From NCBI GenBank assembly GCA_008632985.1, contig QPGO01000074.1:1-64000 (forward strand): a stretch of DNA of 64,000 bases. Direction: 5' to 3'. Positions 4,121 to 40,708 of this stretch are shown piece after piece. This stretch comes from Psammoneis japonica. Lineage: Eukaryota. The notes beneath the pieces were generated by a model that saw only the letters and a list, made by a program, of their open reading frames with translations, ran no database searches and was not told the origin of the DNA. The number at the start of each line of letters is the position of its first letter. Position 1 is the stretch's first letter. The position numbers and the translations under genes were made by a program.

Positions 4121-4291
4121 TAGCAGCCATCCTATTGTATCGACATTCAAAAAGTTTAGAGCTTCTTGGTTCTCGGAACAAGCACTAGAGTCATAGTAGA
4201 TGCCAATGCTTCTCCTTTCTGAAGAGCAAGGATTTCAATGAACCATAACATTGAACTTGCTTGCGGAAGTGCTCAGTGAGATTGCTGCTGT

Positions 4292-7254: not shown

Positions 7255-8382
7255 AATTCACTTGTCACCGTAGTAACAGCTGTACGCTGTAGTGTAGTCC
7301 TTCAAAACCAATGCTCGACACGTGTCTTGCTTCAAAGTAGGGTCACAATAGATGTCAACGCCGACTCAGCCTCCTTTCTCCTTCTCTATTCTGAAAGATG
7401 CTTTCGTGAGCTCCCGGCACCAGCTGCGACGATGGTGCCAGCACAATCATCCAACGGCTTTGAGACTTCTCATGCATCAATTGCATGGAATGTGACACCC
7501 GACACTCCAGTACGACCGAATCCACATACAGCCGACCCCCGCGGTTCAAACAAAGGATTACAATTGAAGAGCGTTGAACATGGTGTAATCACAAGAAGGT
7601 TGCCCAGAAAGGAAGCAAATCATTTGTTGGAAGATAGTGGGAAGGGCACATCCTTTGCGGAGTCTAGATTTTCTTCAAATGACTTGCCATTGTATAAATT
7701 CAGAAGGAGTCCAAAGACTGTGGATAACGAGCCGGAACACTCAATCGGGTAGCCGAGCCCCATGTTCTCGAGGAGAGTCCCTCGATCAGATCCACGGAGA
7801 CTTTCGCGCCTGATGAATTATTAACGGAGACGACCTTTGCCGAGACGTCGGGAGCGTCAGAGCCATCAGTACAACAAGATCTTGCCAAAGCACGTGATCT
7901 TAAAGTTGAATGGTTGGGGAAATCGTTGGCGATTTCAGCTACCAATGTCGAGGAGAAAAAACTCCGACATGACTGGGGAGATCATCTCGTTGCCGGAGTC
8001 ACGGCGATTGCTGTGCTCTATGTTGTCCTTGCTGTTGCAGCTGCTTTTGTTGCGATCAAACTCAGGTATGGAAAGCATTGAAATTTGCTTGTTGCCATAG
8101 TACTTGTAGCAACCATCCTGTAGTACTGAGTGGGATTGCTCCTCTCGAATTTCAAATTTGAAAATTCAACGCGCGAATTCGCGTGCAGGCGCTCATTTCA
8201 ATATTTGAACCACTCGACTAAAGATTATGCGAGAAATTCAAACCGATCGTTGCCGTTCGACCCGCGCAACAACATCAAAACAGACATCAAACAAACCCTC
8301 TTTCGAAGACAACACAAGGTCGCTCTTTCCCGCATCACAATCATAGCAAGTCGTCATATCGTATCAGCTGCTTACGTCGAAC

Positions 8383-9242
8383 ATGGCAAGATCCACACCC
8401 AGCGCCGTAGCAGATATGGGCAACGCTGTCGAAACGGTGCCCACCACGACAAAGAAGCTTTCCAAGAGAGAAAAGGAAGAAATCCAGGAGAGGGTTCGTT
8501 TGAGCTTTCAAGGAGGAGTCGTGTCGCCGACACGTTGTCCACGAGGCGAGAAGATCTCCAGTGGTGAGGACGGTCCGACGACGATGGCAGCTGTGTCTAC
8601 GAGGGGCATCAAACGAAAAGCCACCGCGATGATTGATGCCAAGAATCCCAAGTCGAAACGCGAGAGAGCCCTTCTCGAAGGCCAACTTCTTGCTGAAGAA
8701 TGGGCTTTTCAACGCTACGGAATCCCCAAGAAATTGGCCATTACCAACATGTCTCAAAGGAATCGATTCCGAAGAGCTTTGCGACTGCAACCGCTCCGAT
8801 GAAAACGCTGGGAACGCTAGAGTCCGACGGCGAACAGGAACGAGCCGAAACACCCAATCGTGTAACCGAGTGGGATGCTGAAACGCTCCATCTCTATGTT
8901 CCCGAGGAGACTTCCTCGATCAGGTCCTGGGAGAGCTTCTCGTCGGAGGAACTATTAACCGAGACGACCTTTACCGAAACGTCGGCATCAGAGCCGAAAT
9001 TTAAGCAAGACCTTGTCAAGGCATGTGATCTTGTCGTCAATTGGTTGGGAAAAACGTGGGCGATGCTTGCTACTTATGTCGAGGAGAACACCGACATGAC
9101 TGGAGAGACCGTCTTCACGGGTCTAGTTACCGGAGTCATGGCAATTGCTTTGTCTTCCATCACTCGGGAACAGCTTGGAAAGCTTATCCTCGCCGTCGTG
9201 GTTGCTCTTGTCGCCATCAAACTCAAGCATGGGAAGCACTGA
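8383..9242 (+). CDS. Tandem-family copy 4, with a 1-nt frameshift near 8752
   Basis: atgtctcaaagg versus atgtcctcaaagg; otherwise near-identical to copy 5. Confidence 0.7.
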
Positions 9243-10289
9243 AATTCACTTGTCACCGTAGTAACAGCTGTACGCTGTAGTATAGTCCTTCAAAATCAAT
9301 ATTCGACACGTGTCTTGCTTCAAAGTAGGGTCACAATAGATGTCAACGCCGACTCAGCCCCCTTTCTCCTTCATTATTCTGAAAGATGCTTTCGTGAGCT
9401 CCCGGCACCAGCTGCGACGATGGTGCCAGCACAATCATCCAACGGCTTTGAGACTTCTCATGCATCAATTGCATGGAATATGATACCCGACACTCCAGTA
9501 CGACCGAATCCACATACAGCCGACCCCCGCGGTTCAAACAAAAGATTACAATTGAAGAGCGTTGAACATGGTGTAATCACAAGAAGGTTGCCCAGAAAGG
9601 AAGCAAATCAGAAGGAGTCCAAAGACTGTGGATAACGAGCCGGAACACTCAATCGGGTAGCCGAGCCCCATGTTCTCGAGGAGAGTCCCTCGATCAGATC
9701 CACGGAGACTTTCGCGCCTGATGAATTATTAACGGAGACGACCTTTGCCGAGACGTCGGGAGCGTCAGAGCCATCAGTACAACAAGATCTTGCCAAAGCA
9801 CGTGATCTTAAAGTTGAATGGTTGGGAAAATCGTTGGCGATTTCAGCTACCAATGTCGAGGAGAAAAACTCCGACATGACTGGGGAGATCATCTCGTTGC
9901 CGGAGTCACGGCGATTGCTGTGCTCTATGTTGTCCTTGCTGTTGCAGCTGCTTTTGTTGCGATCAAACTCAGGTATGGAAAGCATTGAAATTTGCTTGTT
10001 GCCATAGTACTTGTAGCAACCATCCTGTAGTACTGAGTGGGATTGCTCCTCTCGAATTTCAAATTTGAAAATTCAACGCGCGAATTCGCGTGCAGGCGCT
10101 CATTTCAATATTTGAACCACTCGACTAAAGATTATGCGAGAAATTCAAACCGATCGTTGCCGTTCGACCCGCGCAACAACATCAAAACAGACATCAAACA
10201 AACCCTCTTTCGAAGACAACACAAGGTCGCTCTTTCCCGCATCACAATCATAGCAAGTCGTCATATCGTATCAGCCGCTTACGTCGAAC

Positions 10290-11150
10290 ATGGCAAGATC
10301 CACACCCAGCGCCGTAGCAGATATGGGCAACGCTGTCGAAACGGTGCCGACCACGACAAAGAAGCTTTCCAAGAGAGAAAAGGAAGAAATCCAGGAGAGG
10401 GTTCGTTTGAGCTTTCAAGGAGGAGTCGTGTCGCCGACACGTTGTCCACGAGGCGAGAAGATCTCCAGTGGTGAGGACGGTCCGACGACGATGGCAGCTG
10501 TGTCTACGAGGGGCATCAAACGAAAAGCCACCGCGATGATTGATGCCAAGAATCCCAAGTCGAAACGCGAGAGAGCCCTTCTCGAAGGCCAACTTCTTGC
10601 TGAAGAATGGGCTTTTCAACGCTACGGAATCCCCAAGAAATTGGCCATTACCAACATGTCCTCAAAGGAATCGATTCCGAAGAGCTTTGCGACTGCAACC
10701 GCTCCGATGAAAACGCTGGGAACGCTAGAGTCCGACGGCGAACAGGAACGAGCCGAAACACCCAATCGTGTAACCGAGTGGGATGCTGAAACGCTCCATC
10801 TCTATGTTCCCGAGGAGACTTCCTCGATCAGGTCCTGGGAGAGCTTCTCGTCGGAGGAACTATTAACCGAGACGACCTTTACCGAAACGTCGGCATCAGA
10901 GCCGAAATTTAAGCAAGACCTTGTCAAGGCATGTGATCTTGTCGTCAATTGGTTGGGAAAAACGTGGGCGATGCTTGCTACTTATGTCGAGGAGAACACC
11001 GACATGACTGGAGAGACCGTCTTCACGGGTCTAGTTACCGGAGTCATGGCAATTGCTTTGTCTTCCATCACTCGGGAACAGCTTGGAAAGCTTATCCTCG
11101 CCGTCGTGGTTGCTCTTGTCGCCATCAAACTCAAGCATGGGAAGCACTGA
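10290..11150 (+). CDS. Tandem-family copy 5 (intact, 286 aa)
   Basis: Complete ORF. Confidence 0.8.
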   Translation: MARSTPSAVADMGNAVETVPTTTKKLSKREKEEIQERVRLSFQGGVVSPTRCPRGEKISSGEDGPTTMAAVSTRGIKRKATAMIDAKNPKSKRERALLEGQLLAEEWAFQRYGIPKKLAITNMSSKESIPKSFATATAPMKTLGTLESDGEQERAETPNRVTEWDAETLHLYVPEETSSIRSWESFSSEELLTETTFTETSASEPKFKQDLVKACDLVVNWLGKTWAMLATYVEENTDMTGETVFTGLVTGVMAIALSSITREQLGKLILAVVVALVAIKLKHGKH

Positions 11151-12198
11151 AATTCACTTGTCACCGTAGTAACAGCTGTACGCTGTAGTATAGTCCTTCA
11201 AAATCAATATTCGACACGTGTCTTGCTTCAAAGTAGGGTCACAATAGATGTCAACGCCGACTCAGCCCCCTTTCTCCTTCATTATTCTGAAAGATGCTTT
11301 CGTGAGCTCCCGGCACCAGCTGCGACGATGGTGCCAGCACAATCATCCAACGGCTTTGAGACTTCTCATGCATTAATTGCATGGAATATGATACCCGACA
11401 CTCCAGTACGACCGAATCCACATACAGCCGACCCCCGCGGTTCAAACAAAAGATTACAATTGAAGAGCGTTGAACATGGTGTAATCACAAGAAGGTTGCC
11501 CAGAAAGGAAGCAAATCAGAAGGAGTCCAAAGACTGTGGATAACGAGCCGGAACACTCAATCGGGTAGCCGAGCCCCATGTTCTCGAGGAGAGTCCCTCG
11601 ATCAGATCCACGGAGACTTTCGCGCCTGATGAATTATTAACGGAGACGACCTTTGCCGAGACGTCGGGAGCGTCAGAGCCATCAGTGCAACAAGATCTTG
11701 CCAAAGCACGTGATCTTAAAGTTGAATGGTTGGGGAAATCGTTGGCGATTTCAGCTACCAATGTCGAGGAGAAAAAACTCCGACATGACTGGGGAGATCA
11801 TCTCGTTGCCGGAGTCACGGCGATTGCTGTGCTCTATGTTGTCCTTGCTGTTGCAGCTGCTTTTGTTGCGATCAAACTCAGGTATGGAAAGCATTGAAAT
11901 TTGCTTGTTGCCATAGTACTTGTAGCAACCATCCTGTAGTACTGAGTGGGATTGCTCCTCTCGAATTTCAAATTTGAAAATTCAACGCGCGAATTCGCGT
12001 GCAGGCGCTCATTTCAATATTTGAACCACTCGACTAAAGATTATGCGAGAAATTCAAACCGATCGTTGCCGTTCGACCCGCGCAACAACATCAAAACAGA
12101 CATCAAACAAACCCTCTTTCGAAGACAACACAAGGTCGCTCTTTCCCGCATCACAATCATAGCAAGTCGTCATATCGTATCAGCCGCTTACGTCGAAC

Positions 12199-13061
12199 AT
12201 GGCAAGATCCACACCCAGCGCCGTAGCAGATATGGGCAACGCTGTCGAAACGGTGCCGACCACGACAAAGAAGCTTTCCAAGAGAGAAAAGGAAGAAATC
12301 CAGGAGAGGGTTCGTTTGAGCTTTCAAGGAGGAATCGTGTCGCCGACACGTTGTCCACGAGGCGAGAAGATCTCCAGTGGTGAGGACGGTCCGACGACGA
12401 TGGCAGTTGTGTCTACGAGGGGCATCAAACGAAAAGCCACCGCGATGATTGATGCCAAGAATCCCAAGTCGAAACGGGAGAGAGCCCTTCTTGAAGGCCA
12501 ACTTCTTGCTGAAGAATGGGCTTTTCAACGCTACGGAATCCCCAAGAAATTGGTCGCTGCCAACCTGCACTCCAAGGAATCGACTCCGAAGAGCTTTGCG
12601 ACTACCGCCGCTCCGATGAAAACGCTGGGAACGCTAGAGTCCAAAGGCGAACAGGAACGTGCCGAAACACCCAATCGTGTAACCGAGTGGGATGCTGAAA
12701 CGCTCCATCTCTATGTTCCCGAGGAGACTCCTTCGATCAGGTCCTGGGAGAACTTCTCGTCTGAGGAACTATTAACCGAGACGACCTTTACCGAAACGTC
12801 GGGAACATCAGAGCCGAAATTTAAGAAGACCTTGTCAAGGCATGTGATCTTGTCGTCGAATGGTTGGGAAAAACGTGGGCGATGCTTGCTACTTATGTCG
12901 AGGAGAACACCGACATGACTGGAGAAACCGTCTTCACGGGTCTCGTTGCCGGAGTCATGGCAATTGCTTTGTCTTCCATCACTCGGGAACAGTTTGGAAA
13001 GCTTATCCTCGCCGTCGTGGTTGCTCTTGTCGCCATCAAACTCAAGCATGGGAAGCACTGA
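12199..13061 (+). CDS. Tandem-family copy 6, with a 1-nt frameshift near 12825
   Basis: tttaagaagacc versus tttaagcaagacc in the other copies. Confidence 0.7.
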
Positions 13062-13731
13062 AATTCACTTGTCACCGTAGTAACAGCAGACGATGTAGTA
13101 TAGTCCTTCAAAACCAATGTTCGACGCGTGTCTTTCTTAAAAGTAGGGTCGCAATAGATGTCAACGCCGACTCAGCCCCCTTTATCCTTCATTATTCTGA
13201 AAGATGCTTTCGACAAAGCCCCCGGCGTCAGCTACGACGGCATTGCTAGCACAATGATCCAACGGCTTTGAGCCTTCTCGTGCATCAAGCGCATGGAATA
13301 TGATACCCAACACTCCAGCACAGTATCCACAGACAGCCCGAATCCCATGGCTCAAATAAGTTTATATTGAAGAGCATTGAACGTGATGTAATAAAAGAAT
13401 GTTGCCCGCAAGTCAAGCAAACCGAAGTGCCCAGATTGGAATATTTTGGAGTGAAACAATCATTAATGTGTGAGAACTTGACTTGTCAAATCATTTGTTC
13501 GAAGATCGCAGGAAGGGCATATCCTTTGCGGAGTCTAGCTTTCCTTTAAATTCCGCAGTTCTTAAAAGATGCAAAAGGCTTCTGTTCTTTCGGCACGGTA
13601 GCTCGTCCTTCGCATCATACACCATCCCAGTGCTGAGTCGCTTTGATCGAGAGCGGTGGGAGATTATTTCTTCCAACCTTCAGGGCTCGATCGTTCTATA
13701 ATTCTGAAATTTTGTGAAGAGGCTACTCCGT

Positions 13732-15960: not shown

Positions 15961-18900
15961 TGACAGGATTTGAACAGGATTTGGGTGCGCGCGAAATGTC
16001 GCGCGCTGTTTAGTTTACCGCGCACAGTTTTGTGTGCTTTAGTTCCGCGCGTTCGCGCGCGATGTAGTTTGCTTTCGAGCCACAAGGCTCACAAGAATAA
16101 CAACAGTGGCCCGATTGTGCCGACTCACACGTCTTTCGGCTCCTGTGACGGTCTCTGAGTGGAGACTCATCTGCCATTTAGACAGCAGCAAGGAGTTGTT
16201 GTTTGAATTCTTGCCATTTGCCTTCATTTTCTGTCAGATTGACAGTCTTGCTCATTGTCAACCCATTGAGCAACCGCCATCGTCGTCCTTGATTTACCGA
16301 CGACGCTTTCAATTCTGCGTGGACCTCCGCATGTGTTCTACGTACATCGGCAAGTCTACGCGCATTCAATGCCAGGCATCGGCAGGAAGTTAACGTCACA
16401 GTCAAGTCTCCTTGCCGCTGGATGTCTGGATTGATCACACCACCTTTCATCACTGAAGACACACATTCAACGGTCACATCCAAGTCCATCCTTGATCCTC
16501 ATCCCTTGACACACCCATTCAACGGTTAACGGTCAAGAACCCTGCATGTTCAAGGATCTTCGTCGCTGAAGACATGCACACACACACATCTTCACGGCCA
16601 AGAACTTGTGCCCACTCTTTGGGCTGCGGCTTTGCTGCCACTCTACAAGCACACCGAGTCCATTGCACCTGATCTGCCCCGGACCACTGGTGCTCTGCAG
16701 TTCCACTGGGTCCACGAGGACGACTGTGAGAGCAAGCAGCCGTGATTGCAGCCTGCGTTGGGGCGAGGGTGTTTTTCCCGCGTTTGTTCGTTCGTCCACA
16801 GCGCCCAACGCCCACGTCAACTGGCCAGCCTGATCGGGAAATCCAACCGACATAAAATGAGAACGGTTCGGGGGTCTTGTCCACCTCTGGTCAGCTTGCC
16901 TGCAGGGGTTTACAACCCGCTGCTCCACTCGCAAGCAACCCAAAGTGCCGCCAGCTGCGGGTTCGGACGTGCCGGCACAACTCTACGGACCGGATGGGAA
17001 GTTTAGCACTTGACAACGAACGGGACAGCACAACCCGGCGACTTCTGATTTTAAGACAGTCCAAGATTTCAAGTCAAGTCTGGCTCAAGTCAAGTCTTTT
17101 TCAAGCCAAGTTCCAAGTCAAAACTCGAGTCAAGATCGCGCTCTAGATTGGATCCTGTCTTTTGTTTCTGCTGCACCGTCCTCCATCATGGTTCTCACGC
17201 GACAGCAACAAACCGAAAGCTTCAAATGCATTCCAGGCACTGTGCTCAATCAAGACGATGACAGCCCTCTTTGTTCTGCCCTGTCCATCAATGGGATTGA
17301 ATCGTGCGAGGAATTGTTCACGTTCTCACCCACCCAAATTGACGCCCTCACTCACAGAGACGGCGCCAATGCAGTGCCTTTGCCACGGACCCACAGAAAC
17401 CTCCTGGCAGCTTTGATCAGCTTCTACTTTGTCAAAGTTTGCAACGGTGATGATGTGACCAATGAACCCCAGTTGCTCACACCCGACGAATTTCGCAACT
17501 GCCGCCTTGGTCCGGACTGCTTGACCTCTCTGGCCACTGGCGCAGCACCCTCCGCACCTGTGCCGAGTCCCTTTCCATCCAAACCAGGTGAACCCAGTGC
17601 CATTTTGACACCAGCCTTGCACTGTGCCGCCACTCAGGTGTCCCCTGGAAGTGGTGTCAGTCGCGCCCCGCATGTCTTGACCAACCCGCCTGCAAGCAAC
17701 CTCGGCCCAGTGCAGGATTGCAGCCCTTGCACAGGCCCGCACTTCGAGACCAGTTGGGACACTCCACCCATGGCTTCCAAAGCTGCAGTCTTTGCACCCT
17801 GCAAACCACGTGCTGCCAACCTCCACGTGTTGACCGCTGTCACCCTTCACAGTCTTCATTTGGGAAGTGATGGAGATGACAACTTGCTTCTCGCATCTCC
17901 TGATGGGGAGCCTCCTTTTCCCATCATTGAATCTGTTCACAACAGTTCAACCGGTTCATCAGATGGGGAGTTCAGGACATCCAAGCAGCTTCATTGTCTT
18001 CGGATCCTCCAAGCATGCACCATGAGACCAGGCCTCCTGACTGGATGCTCCAAGTCTCGCACCTCGAGACTGGGCCTCCTGATTGGATGCCTCAAGTCTC
18101 GCACCTCGAGACTGGGCCTCCTGATTGGATGCCTCAAGTCTCGTGCCTTGAGACCAGGCCTCCTGACTGGATGCTCCAAGTCTCGTACCTCGAGACCAGG
18201 CCTCCTGATTGGATGCCTCAAGTCTCGTACCTCGAGACCAGGCCTCCTGATTGGATGCCTCAAGTCTCGTGCCTCGAGACTGGGCCTCCTGGTTGGATCC
18301 CCCAAGTCTCGCACCTCGAGACTGGGCCTCCTGATTGGATGCCCCAAGTCTCGTGCCTCGAGACCAGGTCTCCTGATTGGATGTCCCAAGTCTCGCACCT
18401 CGAGACCAGGCCTCCTGATTGGATGCCTCAAGTCTCGTGCCTCGAGACTGGGCCTCCTGATTGGATGCCCCAAGTGTCGCACATCGAGACTGGGCCTCCT
18501 GATCGGATGCCCCAAGTCTCGTGCCTTGAGACCAGGCCTCCCAACTGGACTCTCCACGTCTTGTGCCTCGAGACCGGGCCTCCCAATTGGATCCTCCACG
18601 TCTCACACCTCAAGACTCGGCCTCCGGATTGGATCCCCCAAGTCTCGCACCTCAAGACTTGGCCTCCTGATTGGATCCCCGAAGACTCGTGTCACAAGAC
18701 TGGCAAGTCCTTGTGGATCCCAGAAGTCTTGCAGCACGGGACTGGTTGCCCCAATCAGACATCTGCAGCCTTGCACCACAAGATGTCTTGCTCCAATCTG
18801 ATCCCCGAAGGCTTGCACCTTGAGACTCGTTTCTCCAATTGGATCAGTCTCTCAGGAGATGCAGCTGAGCTTGCAATCGGACTGGTGGAACACAAGACCA

Positions 18901-19667
18901 CCGCTTGTGCCTTTGAACTCATGCTTGCTCTGTTCCCCAAGTCGTGCAAACGCCATGCCACCCTGCACGAGCACTGCTCTGTTTTTCTGGCAGCAGCCCA
19001 GTGTGGCAACCGTCCCAAGAACCAACAGACAGCCATCAGTCTTCATGACCTTCGCTCAGGAAGTGAAGGTGATGTCAACTTGTTTGCATTGTCCTGCAAT
19101 GTTGCCCCGCCGTTCAACATTGTCAACCAGACCAAGCTTTGCTCCTTCCATTGCAAGTGCGGATGTGGAATCCCACAAGATCCCAAGTGTGCCTTGAGCT
19201 TTGAAAAGCACAACGGCATCTGCAATTGGGGAGACGCAGCTCATCTCAAGATGACACGCTTGGAGAATGCAGCGTTGCTCTCGGATCTTGATCCTTTCTT
19301 GTCTCCTCATGTTTTGGTGCTTTGACTCCAAAGTTCTTCAGTCAATCCGAAGTCGAATCTGTTTCTGTGACTCCTCAAGCAAACTGGGGAGTGACAGGAT
19401 TTGAACAGGATTTGGGTGCGCGCGAAATGTCGCGCGCTGTTTGGTTCACCGCGCACAGTTTTGTGTGCTTTGGTTCCGCGCGTTCACGTGCGATGTAGTT
19501 TGCTTTCGAACCACAAGGCTCACAAAAACAACAACAGCAGCCCGATCATGCCGACTCACACGTCTTTCGGCTCCTGCAACGGTCTCTGAGCAGAGACTCA
19601 TCTGCTGTTCAGACAGCAGTGAGGAGTTGTTGTTTGAATTCTTGCCATTTGCCTTCATTTTCTGTCA
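15961..19667 (+). mobile_element. Internally deleted Ty1/copia (CoDi-like) LTR retrotransposon
   Basis: 276-bp LTRs at 15961-16236 and 19392-19667 (TGACAG...CTGTCA); 5-bp TSD CTTCA; GGGGAG before the 3' LTR; gag-like start at 17188 (MVLTRQQQ...DDDSPL); pre-RT remnant KCGCGIPQDPKCAL...NGICNWGDA near 19155. Confidence 0.92.
18020..18850 (+). repeat. 42-bp tandem repeat, about 16 good plus about 4 degenerate units, inside the copia element
   Basis: Unit ACCTCGAGACTGGGCCTCCTGATTGGATGCCTCAAGTCTCGC; 14-aa periodicity in the overlapping ORFs. Confidence 0.95.
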
Positions 19668-20599: not shown

Positions 20600-21650
20600 T
20601 GGCCTTTGCCCTTGCTCTCTTTCCCAAGCTCACCCAAGCAAGCACTCTCTCTGCTGCCCAACTCGCCCTCCCCAGTGGTGTCTTCCTTGCCCATGTGGTG
20701 ACTTGCACCCTGACCTCCTTGGAAACCATGCTTTTTCTTGCTCCAAGATGCATGAGGGTCCTTTGTTGAGCCACATCCACAATGCTGTCTGCACCACACT
20801 TGAAGCCCTTGCCCTCTTTGCGGCTTGCGCCACTCTCGCTGACAAGAAGTCCACCTCAAGCCTGCAGGACTTCTCCCCAACCATTCTCTCAAGCACCCTG
20901 CTGATGCAGGTGCTCAACTTGCTCCAAGCTCTGCACCTCCCCATGCACACTCTGTGCACCAATGTGTTGCTGTTGATGCTCCAGCTCCCCCCCTGCTCCT
21001 CCCCATTCTGCACCTGGTTTTCCCACCCCTCCCAACCAACTTGCCAAGGCTCACCTCAGCAGCACTTGGGGCGAGCTTCTTGGATGCAGCACCTCATCTT
21101 CCACAGGCTCTTCCATCATTTCTGCCACAAACCAGAGTCAGGCCTTTTCCTTCTCCCTTTTGCCCTTGACCACCTTGGCAGAATGAGCTGCCAACTTCCG
21201 CACCTTTTTCCCCATGGCTTTTCTCACACAACACCTCCTCTTCTGTTCCACCACCTCTCCTCCCAAGCCCCCCTGGAATGATCCCACTGACTTTTTGAAC
21301 TCCACCAGTGCCTCCTTTGCAGCCTGCGCCAACTCCCCCCCCCCCCCCCCCNTCCTCTCTCTGATGAAGTTTCTTGCCCCCAGTCCAGTGTCTCGACTCT
21401 GGCGGGACACACCTCTCTCCCGACCATTTTGGCTCTTCCAATCACACCTCTGCCCCTCAATCTTGGGCCACCCAACTCTTGAGCCTCAACTTTGGTCTCG
21501 CCTTTTCCAATCACCTTGCCAACTGCCAGTCCTTCCTGGCTCGGCCTCCTGCCTGCCTTAAACCTTCACCCCTCCGTCTGTCCGCACCTCCGCCCCCCTT
21601 CTGCACCTCCCATCCTGCCTTGTTGTTCCTTCCGCCTTCCGCGCGCTCTC
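20600..21650 (+). mobile_element. Decayed 3' part of an RLE-clade (CRE-like) non-LTR retrotransposon
   Basis: Zn-knuckle CPCG...DLLGNHAFSC...HN, then KPAGLLP...KHPADA, VAVD and LLPFALDHLG across frameshifts, matching the CCHC + restriction-like endonuclease layout. Confidence 0.6.
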
Positions 21651-22365: not shown

Positions 22366-24132
22366 CTAGTCTTCATCAAACAGCTCGTCAACGTTTACTC
22401 CATCTAAAGCACCAACCTGAAAGAGCGACGAAGCCTCATTTTTCTGTTCTGATGTTACAGTCCGAACCGTCTCTTCCTTATGATCATCGTCGTCATCATC
22501 CAGAAAATCCATCATGGTATCATCTTGCATAACCCATGCTGTCGTCGATAGACTTTCAGTTTGGTTAGTAGAGATTTCATTGTTCTTTGACGACTTGTCC
22601 CCTGTTTGCACAAGTTGCTCTCGTGGCTCGTCGTTTCTGACCACGCTACTGTCGTTTTGAGGTAATGGATTGATCGGCACGAGCACCTCTCTTGTCGTCC
22701 CCCCATCAGTTTCCTTGTCGGGTACGTCCAGAGCAACGACTTTTGTATTCTGTCCAACCGTACTGTCATGTTGTGCGCGACCGGGTAACTCGTTTTCCTT
22801 GCGTCTCTCAATGCGGATAGGACTTGAAGCCTCCACTGACTGCATGCGAGGCGTACTACCATGTCTTCTTTGGGCGCTTGGCAGCTTGTTTGCAGTAGCC
22901 GGAATGCCGTGATCGTCATTGGAAACTTCGATACATAGAATCTCATCTTGCGTACCTGGAGAAGCTGTGGAAATACCTGCACTAGGAGTCGGCCCTTGAG
23001 AATTGTTCTCGATGCCACCAATGGGCTGAACTTGTAGTTGCTGGTTCGGAACAACGACAGCTTCTCCCGAAATGTCACGGTTTTCGATAGATGCACCGTT
23101 ATTCACTGAAAAAGGAATGCCTACAGGCACCTCCTGTTGATGATCCGTTTGCATTATTGCAAGCACTTCTTCCGCATCCACATCTTCCTCTCCACGAATG
23201 CTGGCCCGCTGTTGCATCCACTCGAGAAACTCACCATCGGTTACCTCATCGGAGGCTTGTTGAGGAGTCCACATTTTTGATATATTGCTCTCTGAGACCA
23301 AGAGCATTCGTTCCACCGACGAGCTTCCATCCTCTGCAGAAATCGCCATGGAAACGTTTGAAAGACGCCAAACGTCACCCAAACGCACATAGTGAGGCGC
23401 TTCTTGCTCTCGTTCCACCAATTCCGGTTCCAACCAAGCCCGAATCCGGTCTCCGCATTCATCACGAAGCTCCACCGTCCAGTCGACATGACCGTGATAT
23501 TGTACAGAATGTACCAAGACAATAAGAAATTTGTTCTCCTTAAGCCTCAAGTCATGTAAACCTCGGTGTATTTCAGGCAACAAAACGTATTGAGAAGGCA
23601 CATACTCGCGTACCGAGTCATATCTCTCCAACGTTGTATAATACGACGGCAAAAACGGAGTACACAATCCAAGATCCTTTTGCATACACATCCATGCCGG
23701 ACACGAGGATATATCTTCCATTTCAACCACATTGTCTTCTTTTGTTTCATCATTGTTGTCTTGCTTTCCGGTCGAGTCGTCGCATTGCAACGAGTGCGCA
23801 CTACTACTGTGCCCCCCCTTTTTGTGCTTGGCGTGTCGATGTGAGTGATACCAAACACCGGCCGGTCCGGGTGGAGGATATCGCTTACGAGGATTGGATG
23901 CCTTTTTTGTTGGTCTTGTTTCTTCCATCGAAGGATCCACTGTCGCTTGATGGGTTACCGAGGTTTTGGGGTGATGGGATCGAGCAATTTCGCTGAAGGC
24001 ATCGTGTTGCTGTCCTGACGCACCGACGGCTGATGATTGATGTTCTCTTGTCAGAATCCCTTGATTCTGTGGAGGATTATATGTTGCAGCAAAGGCAGAA
24101 CGGTCTGAAAGGTTATCTGACGGCGGATGCAT
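22366..24132 (-). CDS. HROB: HROB/MCM8IP-like OB-fold protein
   Basis: PGPAG motif followed by the OB-fold-like segment VELRDECGDRIRAW...LGDVWRLSNVSM...LLVSESNISKMW; disordered flanks. Confidence 0.6.
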   Translation of the reverse strand: MHPPSDNLSDRSAFAATYNPPQNQGILTREHQSSAVGASGQQHDAFSEIARSHHPKTSVTHQATVDPSMEETRPTKKASNPRKRYPPPGPAGVWYHSHRHAKHKKGGHSSSAHSLQCDDSTGKQDNNDETKEDNVVEMEDISSCPAWMCMQKDLGLCTPFLPSYYTTLERYDSVREYVPSQYVLLPEIHRGLHDLRLKENKFLIVLVHSVQYHGHVDWTVELRDECGDRIRAWLEPELVEREQEAPHYVRLGDVWRLSNVSMAISAEDGSSSVERMLLVSESNISKMWTPQQASDEVTDGEFLEWMQQRASIRGEEDVDAEEVLAIMQTDHQQEVPVGIPFSVNNGASIENRDISGEAVVVPNQQLQVQPIGGIENNSQGPTPSAGISTASPGTQDEILCIEVSNDDHGIPATANKLPSAQRRHGSTPRMQSVEASSPIRIERRKENELPGRAQHDSTVGQNTKVVALDVPDKETDGGTTREVLVPINPLPQNDSSVVRNDEPREQLVQTGDKSSKNNEISTNQTESLSTTAWVMQDDTMMDFLDDDDDDHKEETVRTVTSEQKNEASSLFQVGALDGVNVDELFDED

Positions 24133-24134
24133 GG

Positions 24135-24746
24135 TGTGGGATTATTGGACCACTGCGCCACTCGTCACCAAAAGAGCTCCCCGTAGAGGGGTGTTGATCG
24201 TTTTGTAATTTATTCAGTGGAACTGCTGAGTTAGCAGTGATGCGCGAGGTGCGCGCAGAATCATCGGAATTGTGGATATTCTCACACTCCCCGGCGGACG
24301 GATCACGGATGGATGTTCAAGGTGAAGGAACTGGAGTGGTCTGGACGTAACTGAGTCTTGAAGATGATTCGATGTAAGCGTGTGTGCTTGATGTGGTGCG
24401 TGCCACGTGATGTCAGCGTTGTGACGTTTGACGTTTGACGTTCTGAATGTTGTCTTGTTGAAGATTGAGCTCTTCCCCGCGGTGCAGACATGCGTGCGAG
24501 TAGGGGAGGATCAGCTTTCCGAGGTGAGCGAGCGTGCTGAAGGATCTGAAAGTTGGGAATCGAACCCTTGGCCTCTAACGTCGTATTGCAACCATGTGGG
24601 ATTATTGGACCACTGCGCCACTCGTCACCAAAAGAGCTCCCCGTAGAGGGGTGTTGATCGTTTTGTAATTTATTCAGTGGAACTGCTGAGTTAGCAGTGA
24701 TGCGCGAGGTGCGCGCAGAATCATCGGAATTGTGGATATTCTCACA
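24135..24746 (-). mobile_element. TRIM (612 bp)
   Basis: Identical 152-bp TG...CA LTRs (24135-24286, 24595-24746); TSD CATGG; minus-strand TGG-starting PBS-like site after the 5' LTR and GGGGAG before the 3' LTR. Confidence 0.95.
24555..24620 (-). promoter_or_regulatory. tRNA-type Pol III A box and B box in the TRIM
   Basis: TGGCGCAGTGG (24620-24610) and GGGTTCGATTCCC (24567-24555), 42 nt apart. Confidence 0.65.
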
Positions 24747-25290
24747 CATGGGGATTCAAACGGCAAGCGGTGAAAATGTCATGGCGAAGCAGAAAAAAAG
24801 TAAAATTATTGCTTTGTGGAGATTGGAGATTTGAACATTTGTGTGATGTGAAAATGCGGCGTTTTGCAGCACAGCCACCCAACCTGCTGGCGGCCCGAGC
24901 CTTTCCCGCGCTTTGGCGGTCCCACGCGCGCTCGGGATGAGCGCGCAAAAGACAAAAACTGCTCGGGAGCAAAAAACTCCTTTGGCCCAGTTTCCCTTCT
25001 TCCAGAGCTCATTGGAGTCATTTCTTGCACCTTCTTGAAGCACAGTGTTCCTCTGCACTGAGCAGGGCTCTAAACAGAGGCTGTGGTGGCAGCCCACCAC
25101 CACTGTGAGCAGGGCCCCCCTGACAATGTCACACCCACCAGGGACGCTCGTCACTCACTTTCCCAGAAAACTTGATCTCTTGATCAGAGAAATCACCCAA
25201 TGAAACAAAGTCACTCTCAATGACTGCTGAGGTCACCATCCAGCACAACTCCCTGCTTGATGACAGGAGACTGCAGAGCATTCGAGCGCA

Positions 25291-25580
25291 CAATTTCAGA
25301 TGAGCGTGCCCAGAGCATCTGTGCATGTGGCACTGGTCTGCTGTCTGCCCCCCAATGGCAGTGTGGCATGTCACAATGACATCACTGATGAAAGATGCAT
25401 GATGGCCTGACTGGCACAATCCACAATGCAAACAGCAACAGTTTTGGTGCAACACAAAATCCAACAAACAAGTGGCAGTTTGACAAGATTCCCTGTTTGC
25501 ACGACCCCACTTTTTCCAGAGCAAACCAGCTCAGAATTTTCACAACAGTGTTTTTGCAACACATCCACATTTTCATCAAC
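25291..25580 (+). repeat. LTR-like repeat homologous to 35651-35937
   Basis: Alignable over about 290 bp; one copy lies before gag, the other after an integrase. Confidence 0.7.
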
Positions 25581-25599
25581 CATCAGGTGCACAGGACAC

Positions 25600-28500
25600 A
25601 GCAACATTGCCCCTGCACAGTCAGTGAGCAAGGTTGCAAATCCATGAGAAACAAGGCTGCAACATGCTGGCAGGAGGACAGACAGCTGCAAAACCAACCA
25701 TGAAGAAGCGGTTCAACCACTGACTCCATTTGCATTTGGCATGCCCTGAAAAAAAAGAGCTTCAGAAGGGTGAGCACCAGATGCACAAGCTGTGCAACAA
25801 TCCTGCAGATCCAGACAGCTCCACATGTGAGCCGAGTTTGCCGCACTTTTCCATGGGAACATGTGAGGAGTGGCTGAACTTTGAGTGCAATGCCAAGCAC
25901 ATGTTCCAGGGACAAAATGACATTGCAGGACCAGCAAAGTTTTTGCTCATGTGCAGGCTTCTTGAGGTGATGCCCTGATGACATTTGAGAATGTTGCGGT
26001 GATGCTCAAAACACTGAGACTGATGTCACCTTCAAGAAGTGTGTGGCAAAGGTCATGCAGAGCGTCTTCCTGTGCATGTCTGTGACATCGCATGTGCAAG
26101 CTGGCCAATGTCAAGACCCTCAAGTGTGAAGCAAGGGCAGTTGAGATCAATGGCTGCATCTCTCAGTTTCTGCCAGTGATGAATGGTGGAGATGTGCCAG
26201 AGGCATTGCCTGATCATGAGCTGCATGACTTGCTCAAGTGCAGTGCACCAAACGCATGGCTGGTCATGCTGCAAGATTTGGACTGGCAGCTGGCACATGC
26301 TGTGGCCAAATTTGTCTCATTCTGCAAGCAAGTTGAGAACAGGCAAAGGATGTGGAAGGCATCCCAGACAAAAGAACATGACTGATGATTGCCAAGCACT
26401 GGAGCACCACATCAAGCATGTCAAGACATCACATGAGAGTGGTGGTTGCAGCAAGTCCAACCAGAAACCTCATGATGAGAAAGAGTCAAACTTCTTTGTT
26501 GAGAAGAAAGCAGAAACCCATGACTCCAATGCAAAGAAGAAGCACAAGGAATGTGAGGAGGAGCTCAAAGCTCAATCACTTCTGTGATCCACATGTCAGC
26601 AACTCTAAAGATGAGTCCAAAGCAGACCTTTGAAGAGGAGGCTGACACAACACTTGTGGCTTTAATGCATTGGATGAACATGTGAATGAAAATCTGTCAC
26701 AGCATTGCACTTGTGTTGTGGACCAACTCTGCAAGCATGTTAAAAAGACTCACTTTTTGACGCCTGTCTTGTTGACATCCATGAACACCATGCACAGCAA
26801 GGGCAAGACTTGAACAATTGAGGCACTGCTTGACAATGGCACCAGCAGCACTTTGCCAAATGAGCAACACTGCAAATGTCTGTGAAGCCATGCAAAGGCT
26901 GAAACACTTGTGCATCAAGTCCACGTGCACAGCAGAAAGTTGGGCAACTGTGATGTGATTGTTGGACATGACACTCTGGAGACACAGGACATCTACACAG
27001 CCTTCTCTAAACACAGATGATTGAGTGGCCTGCGGTCAATGGAGGAGTTCCAATGAGGCACACAGATGCTGTGGCAGAAACCTCCTTTTTCATTCAAGAT
27101 CCAGAGCTCTTGATGTTGAAAAGTGACCAAATTTCACTCATTTTGGATGCTGAGCACATGCTGGCATGCCTCAAGGACATGACACAAGGGGCAACAGGAC
27201 TCAATGGAGCTCAACAAGCAAAGCTGTTTGGCTCATTAAAGAGACATTAATCCCCATTTGATGGGACACCAGGACAGTGGAAAGGAGAACCCTGCCAAAC
27301 CCAGCTGAAGAAGGGCATGGAACCATGTCATGAACATCCACACAATGCACCTCATGCATGCAGAGCCACACTGTGCAAGGAAGCAGAGTGCCTTGCATGT
27401 CCATGTGTTCTCAAATGCATCGACCAATCCCAGTGGGCAGCTTCATTGTTTGTCACACAAAAGAAAGACTTGACAGTTGGTTTGTCAATGATTTCAGGGA
27501 GCTGAACAAAAGGACAAAGTGAGTCCCTTGTCCAATCCCTCATGTTCAAGATGCACTGCCAAAGCCAGAAGGCTTTAAGTGGGCTGCATCGTTGGATTAA
27601 AACATGGGCTGTTGTCATGCCCAGTTGGACAATGACAGCAAGAAGCTCTGTGCACTTATTTTCCCATGGGGAAAGTGCAAGATGCAGGCATTGCTGCCCA
27701 TGGGACAGTGCAATTCACCTGACAAATTTCAGGAGAAAATGTCAACCGCATTTGAGGATCTGTTCTTGTTCATGTGAACACATTTAGATGACCTTCTTGT
27801 TGTGATAAAAGACACCTGCTAAGATCCTCTCAACAAACTTGAAGAAGTCTTGTTGCAAGTCAAGAATGAAGGGCTGAAAGTCAACAATGAAGTCTCATTT
27901 CTGTCAGATCCAACTAGAACACTTGGGCCATTTGGTTGACTGAGAATGCATGCAACCAACACCCACCAAAGTTGAATTCATTGAGTGCATTGCAAAGCCT
28001 GCAAATGAGTGCAAACTCCACTCATTTGTGAGTGTGGTGAACTGCTGTTGCGATGCATGGCTCATTCCCTTGCAAGACTTGCAAGCAGGGCTGTCACCTG
28101 GAGCCAGACATCCATTGAAGTTGAGGCATTTGAGACTGTCAAACAAGCACTGTTTGAAAATGTCTCATTGGCACTCCCAGACATTGACAAACCTTTTGAG
28201 ACACATGCGATTCCTCTAAATGTCATCTTGGAACAGTGACATCACAAAATGACAAACCAGTTGTGCTCTGCAGAGCAGAAAGCTCAATGGTGCACAATTA
28301 AACCACACAACAATGGAGAGAGAATTGCTTGCCATTGTGAAGATGTTGAAAAATTTTGCACAATTCTTCTTGGTCAATGAATGGCAGCACATGCTGATTG
28401 CAAAAATCTTGCTTGTGTGGGGTGATCAACACCAAACACATGATGTGCTGGAGGTCAATGTGTGAAGAATGTGGCCCTGATTTGTGGTGTGTCAAAGACA

Positions 28501-35650: not shown

Positions 35651-35937
35651 CAATTTCAGAGGAATGCCTGGAGCAGCTGCGCACATGGCACTGATCCATT
35701 GTCTGCCCCTGATGGCAGTGTGCCTGGCATGTCATGACAACATCACTTGCGGAAGACATGTGATGGCCTGGCTCACACAATCCATGATGTGAACAGTGAT
35801 GGTTTGGGTGCAACACAAAATCCAAACAAACAAGGAATTTGACAAGATTCCCCATTTGCACGATCCCACTTTTTCTAGAGCAAACTGGCTCACAATTTTC
35901 ACAACAGCACTTTTATGACACATCCATGTTTTCATCA
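35651..35937 (+). repeat. LTR-like repeat homologous to 25291-25580
   Basis: Direct alignment; differences are mainly TG/CA swaps. Confidence 0.7.
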
Positions 35938-38900
35938 CTCACTGGGTGCATCAGGCACTTGCATCTCCAATTTTTTGTTGCTTCTTCTCCAAAAGAAAGA
36001 AACATGATCTCCATCAGGTTTGCACTGCATGCTTGAAATTCAAAAGGCCAAGGGAACACACCAGGCCTCTTTGCCCTCCAAATCAAATGTTTCACCAGCT
36101 CTGGATCTTGGGCATGTTCACAAATTGGCCTGGGCCAAGGCTGCTGCAGCCACTGAGGAAATGCAAGATCCAAAACAGAGCTGGAAGAGCCCAAGGTCAA
36201 AGCACTTTGCAGCTGGTTGTCCAAGCTCAAAAATGAGCTTGCCATGTCCAACAAGAAGGTCAATGAACTCCTCTGACAGAACAATGAGAAAGCCTCAAAC
36301 AAATTGAAAACAGAGCACAGCAAAGTCATTTCCTGCATGAAGGCAGAGAGCTGGAAGAAGTCCAGAAACAAGCAAGTTGCAAACATTGGCTGCAGTTGTT
36401 GAAAGTTCTCTGGGAAGAAAAGAGTTCTCCAGGAGAAAACTGCTTTGACAAGACAAGAAAACATGTGACAGAGCTGCACTTGTAAAAAAGGAATAATCTG
36501 GAAGAAAAGCCAAGAAAAAACTCCAGCAGCTTGCAGAGGCAACTCTTGCAATTAAAGAGTGGCACAAGAAACATCACAGATGTGTTGCAAAAAAATTGTT
36601 TCTTGCCACTGTGCTGTTGAGAAGATGGAGAAAAGTGTGGTGGTTGGCTGTCCTTGTTGCAGATGAACAAAGTGCAATGTCAAGAGGTTGGTGCTTGCAC
36701 GCTCACTTTCTCTCTCTTTGTCTGCCCCCCCCCCCCCCCCCCCTCTTTTGTGCACCCCGACTCTCTTCTGAGCACAGAGGAGCACCCATTGCTTGAGAAA
36801 AAATGCCCCACTGACAGGTCAGGTGAGTCCCAAAGGGGCCACCAGAAAAAGGTGCATTGCAGCTTTTGACCAGAGTGGGCACTCTGTCAAGAACAAAGAA
36901 AAGTGGGAGTCAGCCACCCTCCTGTGCTGCTGAAAGTGTTGGGGGAGAGCCAGAGCTGTCAACCCCACTTTTTGAGACCTTCTCTTGCAAAACAAAAAGA
37001 GCTGCAATTGAGAATGGCATTGTTTTTGATCTGTTTTGAGTTTGCAGTTTTGATGAAAGCACTGCACCTCCATTTGTGTGGTTTGTCTGCACGTTGAAAA
37101 TGACAAAATGAAGGCCCCCATGGGCTCCACACACTGTGACAACAATGCATGCAGTGTGTTGTTGCTTTGCAGCACTTTGTTGCAGCACCATAAAACATGG
37201 GGGCTGATGGGGGGCCACCCAATTGATGATGGCTTAAAAGCATCTGAAAAAGTGGCTTTGGATGATTGGTGGTGAGATTCTTGCCAACATGGTGACAAAG
37301 CATGGCATTCCACCACAGGTTTCAAAACCCAAATCCCTGTCAAAACAGCACATGTTTGGTCATGCAGGTGGCTCCAAGTTTGTGAAAAAAGAAGAGGGAA
37401 AGTGGTGGAGGAGGGCAGAGAGGTCTGTGCCCAATGTGCGTGCATGACAACCAGACAATTGATGCTTGGGTGACCCGCCCAACACCAACACCACAAACTT
37501 GCCATGATGGTGGCACAACCGATGCTCAATTTTGCCACCAAACCTGTTCCTGCCAAAAACACCAGTGCACAACATGCCACATTTTTCTGACAAGTGCATC
37601 AAGAAAAAGAGAGATGAGGGAAAACCCAAAAATGGATGACAAATCCTTTCTGTGATTTCATTGCTGTTCAGCCGTGCTTGATTCTCACAACTTGCACATC
37701 AACAACCTGTGCTCTGTTTTGCTGCCAAACCTTTCCCACCAAAATGCCAACATGTGACATGCTGCACATTTTTCTGACCCGTCAAAGTGCAGCCTCCTTT
37801 GTTGCACCTCATGAGATGTCAAGAGAGCAAAGGTCTGTTGGTGGTGGACCATTTCAATTCTCCTTTGTGAAAGTCACAATGCATCCTTCTTGGTGTCCAT
37901 CAAAATGCACCCTTGGTGTCCATCAAAGGGCGAACAGCACATTGACAAAGGCGCCAAATCAGCACAAAGATGAAGCCATCAACAAGAGCAAAGTGCTGCC
38001 CAGTGCTGACCATGCACTGCCCATGCTCATTTTGGCTGTTCTTTCAGTGCAACCAACAACCAACGAACATGGCGCACAACATCAAAATTGCACCAGAGGT
38101 GTTTTGTCCCTCTGAGTGCATGGCTTGAGAGGGGAAGCTGGGTGTGCTGCCTTCACAAATTTGCATGGTTCCATTCAGTTTTTATGAGATTTGAACATTC
38201 ATTGCACCAATCAAGGAGCTGGCACCCTCCACATGTGTCTCCATTCAACAAAAGCTGTGAGATGATGGATTGGAAAGAAGTCGAAGTGGGGCATTGGAAA
38301 AATGCAAGCTGAAGAGGAGAGGGTCAGATGAACAAGTGGCAAAGTGATGAGAGGAGTTGCAAAGAGCAGCACATGGCCACACCACCCGGGAATCTCAGCG
38401 CTGCTCAAGTGGCAGCTGCACACTTGCGTGGTGACAAAATTCGCTCACATCCACAAATGAGGCAGGAGGATTGTCAAAGAACAAGTGGGTGCGAGTGGCA
38501 AACCAGAGAGTGACAAGAATCTGAGGAATTAACCATGCTGTTTGTGAGGAAGCAGCTGCCTCTACTTGTCCTTGTCAAAATGGAATTGCGTCCTCATCAA
38601 ATTCTACACAAGTTCCGGGGTTAAGTCCTGCACGTTTTATGAAGAGCCACCCAAAAAACTGAAAACCCCTCGAAAATCGAATGAGGTTATGAGCTAGACC
38701 ATAGATGGTGGTACTGTAGAATAAGTATGTTGTGCTACGGCCCAAGCAAAATAGCATGTTCCTCGTGGACAGAAGTAGATCACAGAACACAACGCCAACG
38801 CAAAAAGATCGACAACAAACAACGAACTTGAAACTGAGTGTCTTGTACCGTTACGCAATCGCCGCTTCCTCATTCAACGACAAGGATCTGACCGACCCTT

Positions 38901-38974
38901 GTTGCTATTGATGCTCGTACAGGAAACGAAAAGCTGCAATAAAGGAACAGAGAGAAAGGAAACACTTCTTGACG

Positions 38975-40708
38975 ATGAAGAATCATCGCATTGGTGCGAT
39001 CGGGCGCATTGTGGTGCTTTGGATACTACTGCCGAGGGCTCTTTCGAGTGTTTTACCTGTACTTTCTGAAAGCAGACGCTTGGACCAAGATACTTGTGGG
39101 ACGGAAGGAAACGATCCCTGTCTGATTTTTTCGCAACAAGACTTGATCAACATCAATATCAACAGGGCGCATGACAGGCACTATGTATTGATGAATGACA
39201 TTGATGTTGAATTCCACTGGCCCATAAGTCCATTCTCTGGTGTGTTTGATGGCAATGGTCATACCCTTCGTTTTACTTTTGATGATTTTGACGCCAAGGC
39301 CAAACTATTTGGTGGTAGTGACGAAGAAGGGTTATTCGGCGTGGCTGGACCGAATGCCCTGATATTCAACCTTACAATTGCAGATTCGTTTTTTCTGGGC
39401 GGGAACTCAGCTGGTGCACTCGTTGGGGGCATTTATGAAGGCGGTGTGACAATACGGGATATTGAGATTGTCAATACAACAGTGACAGGTTTCAGGGGAC
39501 CATTTCGCCTAGGTGAAGGTGGCGCCGGTTTACTTGTAGGGTTTCTTGGTGGTGACAAAGCATCGTCTATCTCGTGTTGCCACGCTCGTGGAGGTAGCGT
39601 CTTGGGTGAGGAATCTGTCGGTGGCCTGATTGGCCACTTTGGTAACGGCAAGATTGACCGATGTAGCGCTGAACGCGTTATCGTTCAGGGAACTGATGGG
39701 TCCAATCACGGAGGCTTGGTTGGTAAAATGGATCGAGCGGCCATTGACAACAGCTATGCAACCGGCAGTGTACAAGGCGTAAATGCAGGTGGACTGGTCG
39801 GAAGCTCTTACAATGGCTCATCCATATCGAACAGCTATGCTCTCGGCAATGTCAATGCGACAGACGGTGCTAGTGGGGGACTTGTTGGCAGAGTCCACAA
39901 TCAGGGTGGCTTTGTTAGGAACAGTTTTGCGACCGGAAGAGTTTCAGGCGTTGCAGGGAGCGACATAGGTGGTCTGATTGGCCACTATAAGAGGTCGGCC
40001 TCACTAGACAACAACTATTATCTGTCGGAACCAGGAGTTGGTAACTACGAAGCAATCGAAACCGAAGCACAACGAATTACTAACCTTCGCTATTTCCAAA
40101 ATTCGGATAATGAGCCAATTTCAACCTGGAACAAAGACGTTTGGGCATTTCCGGATAATGCCTTTCCAGTCCTCAAGGAGTGTCCGCCAGATGCTGACAT
40201 TGGGATCGACGCGGGAGGACCATATCCCGAGTTCAGCCAAGTAACCTGTTCCTACACCTCGTGCCTTGGTGAAGTTCTCAAAACACTAGAGAGGCGCACC
40301 ACATTCAGCAAGGATCAGCTGGCATATAACGCAGCCAAACGCAAAGCATATGCTTCCATGACAGCAATCAAGACTCAAGGGTATGTCGTTGGATCCCTCA
40401 ACAAGCTCACGCGGTCCATGGAATATATGGAGGATCTCCGAATGACTGCTCCCGGGTTCTCCGACGATATTGGTAGAAAAGCAAGTACCTGTGCTATTGC
40501 TCTTGTTGAAAACTTCATTGGCGCATTCAAGCGAAAGGGCTTCCTTGACGATGGATTCCTTGATCAGGTGAGCAAAACAAGCTTGTCTACTGCTGTGTTC
40601 AAGAAACAGTCCAAAGAATGGAAGAACAGTGTAGCAAAATGCCAGGTTGCAATTTTGAGGATTATGAACAACTTGGGGGAAAGGAGTGTTCCTCGCTGCC
40701 ATAGTTAA
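38975..40708 (+). CDS. Secreted GLUG-motif repeat protein with a shared C-terminal helical domain
   Basis: Signal peptide; YVLMNDID...FSGVFDGNGHT cap; repeated GGLVG / NSYATG units. Confidence 0.85.
   Translation: MKNHRIGAIGRIVVLWILLPRALSSVLPVLSESRRLDQDTCGTEGNDPCLIFSQQDLINININRAHDRHYVLMNDIDVEFHWPISPFSGVFDGNGHTLRFTFDDFDAKAKLFGGSDEEGLFGVAGPNALIFNLTIADSFFLGGNSAGALVGGIYEGGVTIRDIEIVNTTVTGFRGPFRLGEGGAGLLVGFLGGDKASSISCCHARGGSVLGEESVGGLIGHFGNGKIDRCSAERVIVQGTDGSNHGGLVGKMDRAAIDNSYATGSVQGVNAGGLVGSSYNGSSISNSYALGNVNATDGASGGLVGRVHNQGGFVRNSFATGRVSGVAGSDIGGLIGHYKRSASLDNNYYLSEPGVGNYEAIETEAQRITNLRYFQNSDNEPISTWNKDVWAFPDNAFPVLKECPPDADIGIDAGGPYPEFSQVTCSYTSCLGEVLKTLERRTTFSKDQLAYNAAKRKAYASMTAIKTQGYVVGSLNKLTRSMEYMEDLRMTAPGFSDDIGRKASTCAIALVENFIGAFKRKGFLDDGFLDQVSKTSLSTAVFKKQSKEWKNSVAKCQVAILRIMNNLGERSVPRCHS

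Follow-up and report, generated by a model that had tools for sequence, protein, structure and literature searches.

The 612-nt element that occupies positions 24746..24135 on the minus strand of the 64-kb stretch of diatom DNA analyzed here (hereafter, the window) is, with near certainty, a mobile TRIM that carries both a box A and a box B of the tRNA type. The two promoter boxes lie on either side of the LTR/PBS junction, box A within the LTR and box B behind the PBS-like stretch, an arrangement that is undescribed for such elements. The best single reading, which we consider plausible and hold tentatively, is that the boxes make up a split tRNA-type (type 2) promoter that is used by Pol III.

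Examination of the sequence together with the output of a repeat finder delineates a complete TRIM composed of two 152-nt LTRs and a 308-nt interior (Table 1). The repeat finder reports 153-nt copies at 24135-24287 and 24595-24747, which are 100% identical and offset by 460 nt. The LTR proper consists of 152 nt with TG..CA ends (TGTGAG...CCCACA), and the 153rd nucleotide, a G, is included in the repeat because the last base of the PPT and the last base of the TSD match by chance. An earlier sequence-only reading of this stretch had identified a TRIM with identical LTRs, and the structure bears this out: the short TG..CA LTRs are indistinguishable, the total length is well within the limit of approximately 1 kb, a 5-bp TSD surrounds the element, and there is no gag or pol coding. 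With respect to the priming sites, the PPT GGGGAG is present and the sequence TGG directly follows the CA end of the LTR; the window holds no tRNA genes with which the PBS-like stretch could be matched. Inspection by eye revealed no LTR 6-mer or longer word complementary to the PBS stretch that would be indicative of self-priming, and the hammerhead ribozyme that characterizes retrozymes has no match at E<=10 in an Rfam search of positions 23000-26000.

Table 1. Features of the element and of its insertion site, in order of window position.
Feature	Positions	Strand	Remarks
Host gene, 588-codon ORF	22366..24132	-	Conserved protein; weak HROB OB-fold match
TSD, downstream copy, CCATG	24130..24134	-	Its ATG opens the host ORF
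3' LTR	24135..24286	-	Box A at 24160..24150 and T4 at 24173..24170; no box B behind it
PPT, GGGGAG	24287..24292	-	Directly before the 3' LTR
Internal region	24287..24594	-	308 nt, non-coding; TTTT absent from the minus strand
Tandem duplication, CAAACGT x2	24424..24437	-	7-nt unit; private to the window copy, missing in four sequencing runs
T-arm-like hairpin, GGGTTCGATTCCC	24555..24567	-	Contains box B; internal positions 28-40; Rfam T-arm match, 7.2 bits
Box B, GGTTCGATTCC	24556..24566	-	Begins 29 nt past the LTR end, behind the PBS-like stretch
PBS-like stretch, TGGTTGCAATACGACG	24579..24594	-	Adjoins the 5' LTR end; starts with TGG
5' LTR	24595..24746	-	152 nt, TG...CA; same sequence as the 3' LTR
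Box A, TGGCGCAGTGG	24610..24620	-	LTR positions 127-137 of 152; matches the consensus
T4 run of the 5' LTR	24630..24633	-	Box A is 9 nt downstream
AT-rich AATAAATTA in the LTR	24666..24674	-	Some 30 nt before the predicted start (near 24638); possible TATA-like element
TSD, upstream copy, CCATG	24747..24751	-	Carries the duplicate of the host gene's ATG; the empty-site joint has 5 common letters

The insertion point coincides precisely with the first ATG of a conserved gene, whose orientation the element shares, and this ATG is duplicated as part of the CCATG TSD. At E<=0.001, the protein encoded by the host ORF is matched by 125 representative relatives, 37 of which reach E<=1e-30; the best of these shows 48% identity over 335 aligned residues, in an alignment that pairs residue 6 with residue 6 and reaches both C-termini. 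Pfam gives a weak match to the HROB OB-fold family, with an E-value of 6e-4 that falls under the curated cut-off. In the sequence as it was prior to the insertion, an in-frame TGA is found two codons upstream of the host ATG.

Direct evidence of mobility comes from a comparison of positions 23700-25200 with four public sequencing runs, namely two DNA runs from one sample (X1 and X2) and two RNA libraries. In each of the DNA runs, one contig joins 24129 to 24747 and represents the exact empty site: 617 nt (612 + 5) are skipped at the joint, with 5 letters common to both sides. The X1 empty-site contig differs from the window by four base differences and one 3-nt insertion, all in the upstream flank, and accordingly derives from a different haplotype or strain. 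Further contigs of X1 extend from the ends of the LTR into flanks that are unrelated to those of the window copy. On the plus strand, the flank before 24135 ends with ACGTT and the flank behind 24286 starts with ACGTT, which amounts to a separate 5-bp duplication; this copy is either an additional insertion or a solo LTR. A further, third flank is found at 24747 among the X1 contigs. Given that the empty site and copies beside other flanks occur in DNA contigs, the element is mobile and polymorphic. The recent origin of the insertion, previously deduced from the identity of the LTRs, is supported, and the empty-site allele occurs in both DNA runs of a single sample. Contig depth reaches 341 for the interior, 619 for the LTR body and 61.6 for the flank; depth is not a copy number, and the ratio suggests several, albeit few, copies with roughly two LTRs per interior. 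The visible copies are approximately 99-100% alike, and there is no second copy in the 64-kb window. Thus, whatever the nature of the promoter, the insertion is live and polymorphic, affects the start codon of a conserved gene of the putative recombination-type OB-fold class, and provides a usable marker of current retrotransposition in a diatom.

Relative to the window copy, 7 nt at about 24422 are missing from the contigs of each of the four runs. The CAAACGT tandem duplication (24424-24437) creates, in the window copy alone, a 150-codon frame that starts from an upstream ATG and extends through the element; because the 7 nt are missing in the four runs, this frame is shifted in the other copies. 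The 150-aa ORF shows similarity to none of the Pfam families, and its comparison with proteins of 82-263 aa yielded 12 word-sharing candidates, none of which reached E<=0.001. Moreover, no autonomous partner, which the sequence-only reading had anticipated, was found in the window: among the stop-to-stop ORFs of at least 120 aa, a Pfam scan of 133 out of the 134 yielded no match to families of reverse transcriptase, integrase, RNase H, protease or gag (the remaining ORF, 21187-21558, includes the window's one N, at 21352). By the argument that has been made for the fungal Helenus elements, the 5-bp length of the TSD makes a Copia-type partner probable, and the element is probably moved by such a partner.

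The consensus of tRNA-type promoters is TRGCNNAGTGG for box A and GGTTCGANTCC for box B, and the two boxes of the element, TGGCGCAGTGG and GGTTCGATTCC, match it at 11 of 11 positions each; for comparison, the cores of the boxes are given as TRGCY/YGG and GGTTC in the main text of the Helenus paper (PMC10886601). The boxes are separated by 43 nt, of which 15 belong to the LTR end and 28 to the beginning of the interior, the PBS-like stretch included. When a gap of 30-60 nt is allowed, the joint pattern has a single match in 64 kb and none in 100 dinucleotide shuffles. Taken separately, box B occurs once on the two strands of the window (128 kb), and the box A consensus occurs five times, twice in the LTRs and three times outside the element. 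Both boxes are present solely in the 5' LTR with its leader, the 3' LTR having box A alone. Two further claims of the earlier reading, namely that A and B boxes are encoded on the minus strand and that they come together in the context of the 5' LTR only, thereby hold. The A and B pair is best taken to be tRNA-derived or selected, as opposed to accidental.

Beyond the two boxes, no part of a tRNA is present in the element. ARAGORN predicts no tRNA genes in the window, and no tRNA reaches E<=10 in an Rfam search over 3 kb (23000-26000). Within the 121 nt between 24530 and 24650, the sole Rfam match is a 13-nt hairpin, GGGUUCGAUUCCC, which is recognized as a T arm of the tRNA clan with 7.2 bits. 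The predicted fold of the 101-nt stretch analyzed has a z-score of +1.35, with 183 of 200 shuffles folding at least as well. The persistence of two perfect boxes at a working distance, when all the tRNA stems are gone, would be expected if selection acts on the promoter. A similar case has been described in Ajax, where the retention of the promoter motifs in a non-foldable sequence has been read as selection for the promoter (main text of PMC10886601).

If the boxes do function as a Pol III promoter, the following scheme can be proposed. TFIIIC would bind box B together with box A, solely in the context of the 5' LTR and leader; TFIIIB would then assemble on the AT-rich AATAAATTA near 24670 (24674..24666), and Pol III would start 10-20 nt upstream of box A, at approximately 24630-24640. 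The polymerase would cross the interior, which is T-poor and in which TTTT is absent, and would stop at the T4 of the 3' LTR (24173..24170) or leak past it. The predicted product is an RNA of approximately 460 nt that would include the U5, PBS, box B, PPT and U3 segments and could be copied by the reverse transcriptase of the partner. With box B placed beyond the LTR boundary, neither solo LTRs nor 3' LTRs would have a working promoter; for the same reason, there being no box B behind its box A, the 3' LTR could not fire into the flanking gene. On a broader formulation, to which we commit ourselves still more cautiously, the PBS would take the position of the anticodon arm within a functional type 2 promoter, and the element would represent a new stramenopile lineage of Pol III-driven LTR elements, with the promoter split at the LTR/PBS junction, box A copied to both LTRs in each cycle, box B remaining single, and an RNA of near unit length.

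The strand of the element has only two TTTT runs, at 24633..24630 and 24173..24170, with none from box A to the 3' LTR. Therefore the earlier observation that the first downstream T4 lies in the 3' LTR and delimits a unit of 460 nt stands; the T4-free stretch itself carries no statistical signal, given that TTTT is also absent in 53% of mononucleotide shuffles of these 456 nt and in 14% of the equal-sized windows of the 64 kb. The first of the two T-runs lies 9 nt upstream of box A, that is, within the expected start zone. Reverse transcription of the LTR type normally requires a terminal repeat, R. Because it would start just past one T4 and stop at the other, the predicted RNA of about 460 nt would be almost devoid of R. 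Were transcription to start upstream of the T4, a terminator would be encountered at about +6 to +9, and R would amount to only some 9 nt. Leaky termination, if assumed, would solve the R problem. A short R has a precedent, in that the RNA of Cassandra possesses a terminal duplication of only 18 bp, as stated in the main text of Kojima 2024 (PMC10886601).

The difficulty with R is one of the reasons to take seriously a second reading, in which the element is an ordinary Pol II TRIM and the boxes are relics of a tRNA- or SINE-derived piece that was present in an ancestor and has since lost its promoter role. We regard this possibility as somewhat less probable than transcription by Pol III and as far from negligible. 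If Pol II initiated at a more upstream LTR position, a normal R would result, whereas the position of the T4 leaves a Pol III transcript nearly without one. Furthermore, AATAAATTA could be a TATA-like element for Pol III or for Pol II, and the AATAAA motif inside it is a possible poly(A) signal; with this motif in its LTR, the element agrees equally well with transcription by Pol II and polyadenylation. Neither a cloverleaf nor a tRNA call has been obtained, and the element seems to have few copies, judging by depth, as opposed to the hundreds found in many Helenus families. What speaks for promoter function over decay is that neutral decay should not spare exactly two perfect 11-mers at a workable spacing once the tRNA stems are gone, an argument with a limited reach because the visible copies are all young and represent one sequence lineage.

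The contigs from the RNA libraries, which come from two samples of one marine-sediment study, are compatible with transcription by either polymerase. They cover 24296-24572 and 24363-24637 at 95-99% identity, a span that takes in box A, the PBS and box B and stops short of the gene flanks and of U3 in the LTR. Carried-over DNA and Pol II RNA are both possible sources of these contigs, whose coverage carries no information on ends, strand or polymerase; an RNA contig terminates at 24637, where contigs of the DNA runs also terminate (24634 and 24637). The three differences from the window (24490, 24519 and 24582, the last one within the PBS-like stretch, in contig X4) all fall outside the boxes, which is without statistical weight, since three differences would miss the 22 box nucleotides among 268 in about 77% of neutral outcomes as well.

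It is improbable that the boxes recruit TFIIIC without productive transcription by Pol III, as an 'extra TFIIIC site' that would form a chromatin boundary and protect the element against silencing, or would influence neighboring genes. Box B is the main TFIIIC determinant, and a perfect box B that occurs once in the window is what such a site would contain; the T4 upstream of box A would likewise disfavor productive transcripts starting before the T4. However, nothing in the evidence is specific to this interpretation, and box A at the canonical spacing would be superfluous, given that sites bound by TFIIIC only do not need it. Less probable still is a role of the D-loop- and T-loop-like stretches around the PBS in reverse transcription or packaging, whereby they would mimic the tRNA elbow or contact the primer tRNA. 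Some LTR elements do have extended primer-template contacts, and both motifs, one on either flank, lie no more than 45 nt from the PBS; yet these motifs are in the tRNA sense and so could not pair with the same parts of the primer, the region adopts no stable fold by the z-score given above, and the tRNA-like parts of Helenus show no complementarity to the Helenus PBSs (main text of PMC10886601). That the two motifs came together by chance can be practically dismissed: for all the three additional box A matches elsewhere in the window, box B is unique in 128 kb, the pair is absent from all shuffles, and the chance of such a pair arising within a 612-nt element is, by simple arithmetic, approximately 1e-7.

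The closest known counterparts of the element are the Helenus TRIMs, which, in the main text of Kojima 2024 (PMC10886601), are defined by tRNA-derived sequence with boxes A and B inside the LTRs and are united with the 5S-bearing Cassandra and Ajax under the name TRIMp3. The statement of the sequence-only reading that published TRIMs with small RNA-derived sequences carry the motif within the LTR thus agrees with the description of all three groups in that text. With Helenus, the diatom element shares the organization of a miniature, non-coding LTR element with a PBS, here a PBS-like stretch, and a PPT as well as the boxes A and B, from which, in both cases, Pol III transcription is predicted; the 5-bp TSD is the same as in the Copia-linked fungal and plant Helenus families (PMC10886601, main text), and falls within the 4- or 5-bp range that, along with the TRIM architecture, characterizes Helenus. 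The differences are threefold. Both boxes are in the LTR in Helenus, whereas here box A alone is in the LTR and box B is behind the PBS, 29 nt outside the LTR, so that tRNA-derived sequence in the LTRs, the hallmark of Helenus, is lacking as such. Furthermore, tRNAscan-SE often calls a tRNA or pseudo-tRNA in the published Helenus elements, whereas no tRNA finder or model detects one here. Finally, the hosts listed for Helenus in Table 1 of Kojima 2024 are fungi, animals and Selaginella, the words 'diatom' and 'stramenopile' being absent from the main text (PMC10886601), in contrast to the diatom host of the present element.

The hallmark of TRIMp3, an internal Pol III promoter sequence, is present in the element in the form of the two boxes with the 43-nt gap that no shuffle reproduced; its functional membership in this group depends on the predicted Pol III transcription. 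As judged from the main text of PMC10886601, Ajax and Cassandra are similar in being TRIMs with an internal Pol III promoter sequence, and Ajax likewise keeps the motifs without a foldable small RNA, whereas the promoter in both is of the 5S type (type 1) and is located wholly inside the LTR. No match to 5S rRNA, the source of the box A, IE and box C by which Cassandra and Ajax are recognized, was obtained at E<=10 in Rfam searches of 23000-26000 and 24530-24650. The conventional Pol II TRIMs of plants, ants, bivalves and cestodes resemble the diatom element in size, LTR length, TG..CA ends, a PBS or PBS-like site and a PPT, and location in or near genes, and differ in that Pol III boxes are unreported in the available accounts of them. 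Short tRNA-derived SINEs (SINE2) are also non-coding, with A and B boxes near the presumed RNA 5' end and a T-run terminator; here, by contrast, there are LTRs, a PPT, a PBS-like site that starts with TGG and a fixed 5-bp TSD, with neither a LINE-type tail nor an A-rich end, and the LTRs, PPT and fixed TSD rule out the assignment to tRNA-derived SINEs. The literature searched, with subscription journals outside its scope, yielded no report of such an element in diatoms, and in the literature searched, the term TRIMp3 is used in the relevant sense in Kojima 2024 alone.

Relatives of the architecture were sought in other sequence collections. A 22-mer from the LTR/PBS junction has 0 occurrences in prokaryote genome contigs, and a 21-mer has 0 in viral contigs. 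A pattern consisting of box A, 8-20 nt, CATGG, 18-35 nt and box B recovered nine loci from metagenomes (L004-L012), six of which were rejected as ordinary tRNA genes identified by ARAGORN, namely those for Pro (L006, L007, L008 and L010), Ser (L009) and Leu (L012); for the remaining L004, L005 and L011, ARAGORN gives no tRNA. When the box A part of this pattern was relaxed, viral contigs yielded three loci, which served as a gauge of the background. A blastn comparison of the element with the 12 pattern loci (nine metagenomic and three viral) produced no matches at E<=1e-3. Two of the metagenome loci, L004 and L005, located at 7001-7068 of a 134-kb and a 122-kb contig, respectively, contain a tRNA-like unit that is unrelated to the diatom element and combines an 8-bp acceptor-like stem with a middle part of excessive size and with boxes A and B that are both perfect.

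Should the boxes prove functional, the range of TRIMp3 would widen from plants, fungi and animals to diatoms, and the promoter would span the LTR boundary such that only the 5' end of the full element is active. The Pol III reading, if true, would further bear on the supply of transcripts for non-autonomous LTR elements without a Pol II promoter and on the minimum terminal redundancy that is tolerated by reverse transcription. It would likewise bear on the annotation of diatom genomes, in which tRNA-like false positives are to be told apart from real mobile elements.

Several other features of the window deserve mention. A second, older LTR-type element occupies 15961-19667 on the plus strand and is bounded by 276-nt direct repeats (15961-16236 and 19392-19667) that are 92% identical, with TGACAG...CTGTCA ends; the element is flanked by a 5-bp duplication, CTTCA, and GGGGAG immediately precedes the 3' repeat. 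RT and IN domains are absent from this element, the sequence behind its 5' repeat starts with letters other than TGG, and its interior contains an ORF of 595 codons in which a 42-bp unit is tandemly repeated at least 17 times (at about 17.9-18.9 kb). The region 6100-13300 is a tandem array of four units of approximately 1.9 kb each, 96-100% identical, with ORFs that belong to no Pfam family; two more diverged units (63-79% identity) are located upstream, at 2035-4130. Two ORFs of about 600 codons on the plus strand, 38912-40708, which contains a GLUG motif, and 46793-48619, are probably paralogs and have in common a 300-nt stretch that is 80% identical (40229-40528 and 48185-48484). Direct repeats separated by approximately 10.36 kb and 76-82% identical are found at 25364-25464 and 35725-35825 (101 nt) and at 25479-25591 and 35838-35950 (113 nt). 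Lastly, the diatom nature of the host is indicated by an EF-1-alpha-type ORF on the minus strand (43815-45173), which shows 82-90% identity to its best named relatives, from the diatoms Pseudictyota dubia, Nitzschia, Odontella and Pseudo-nitzschia.
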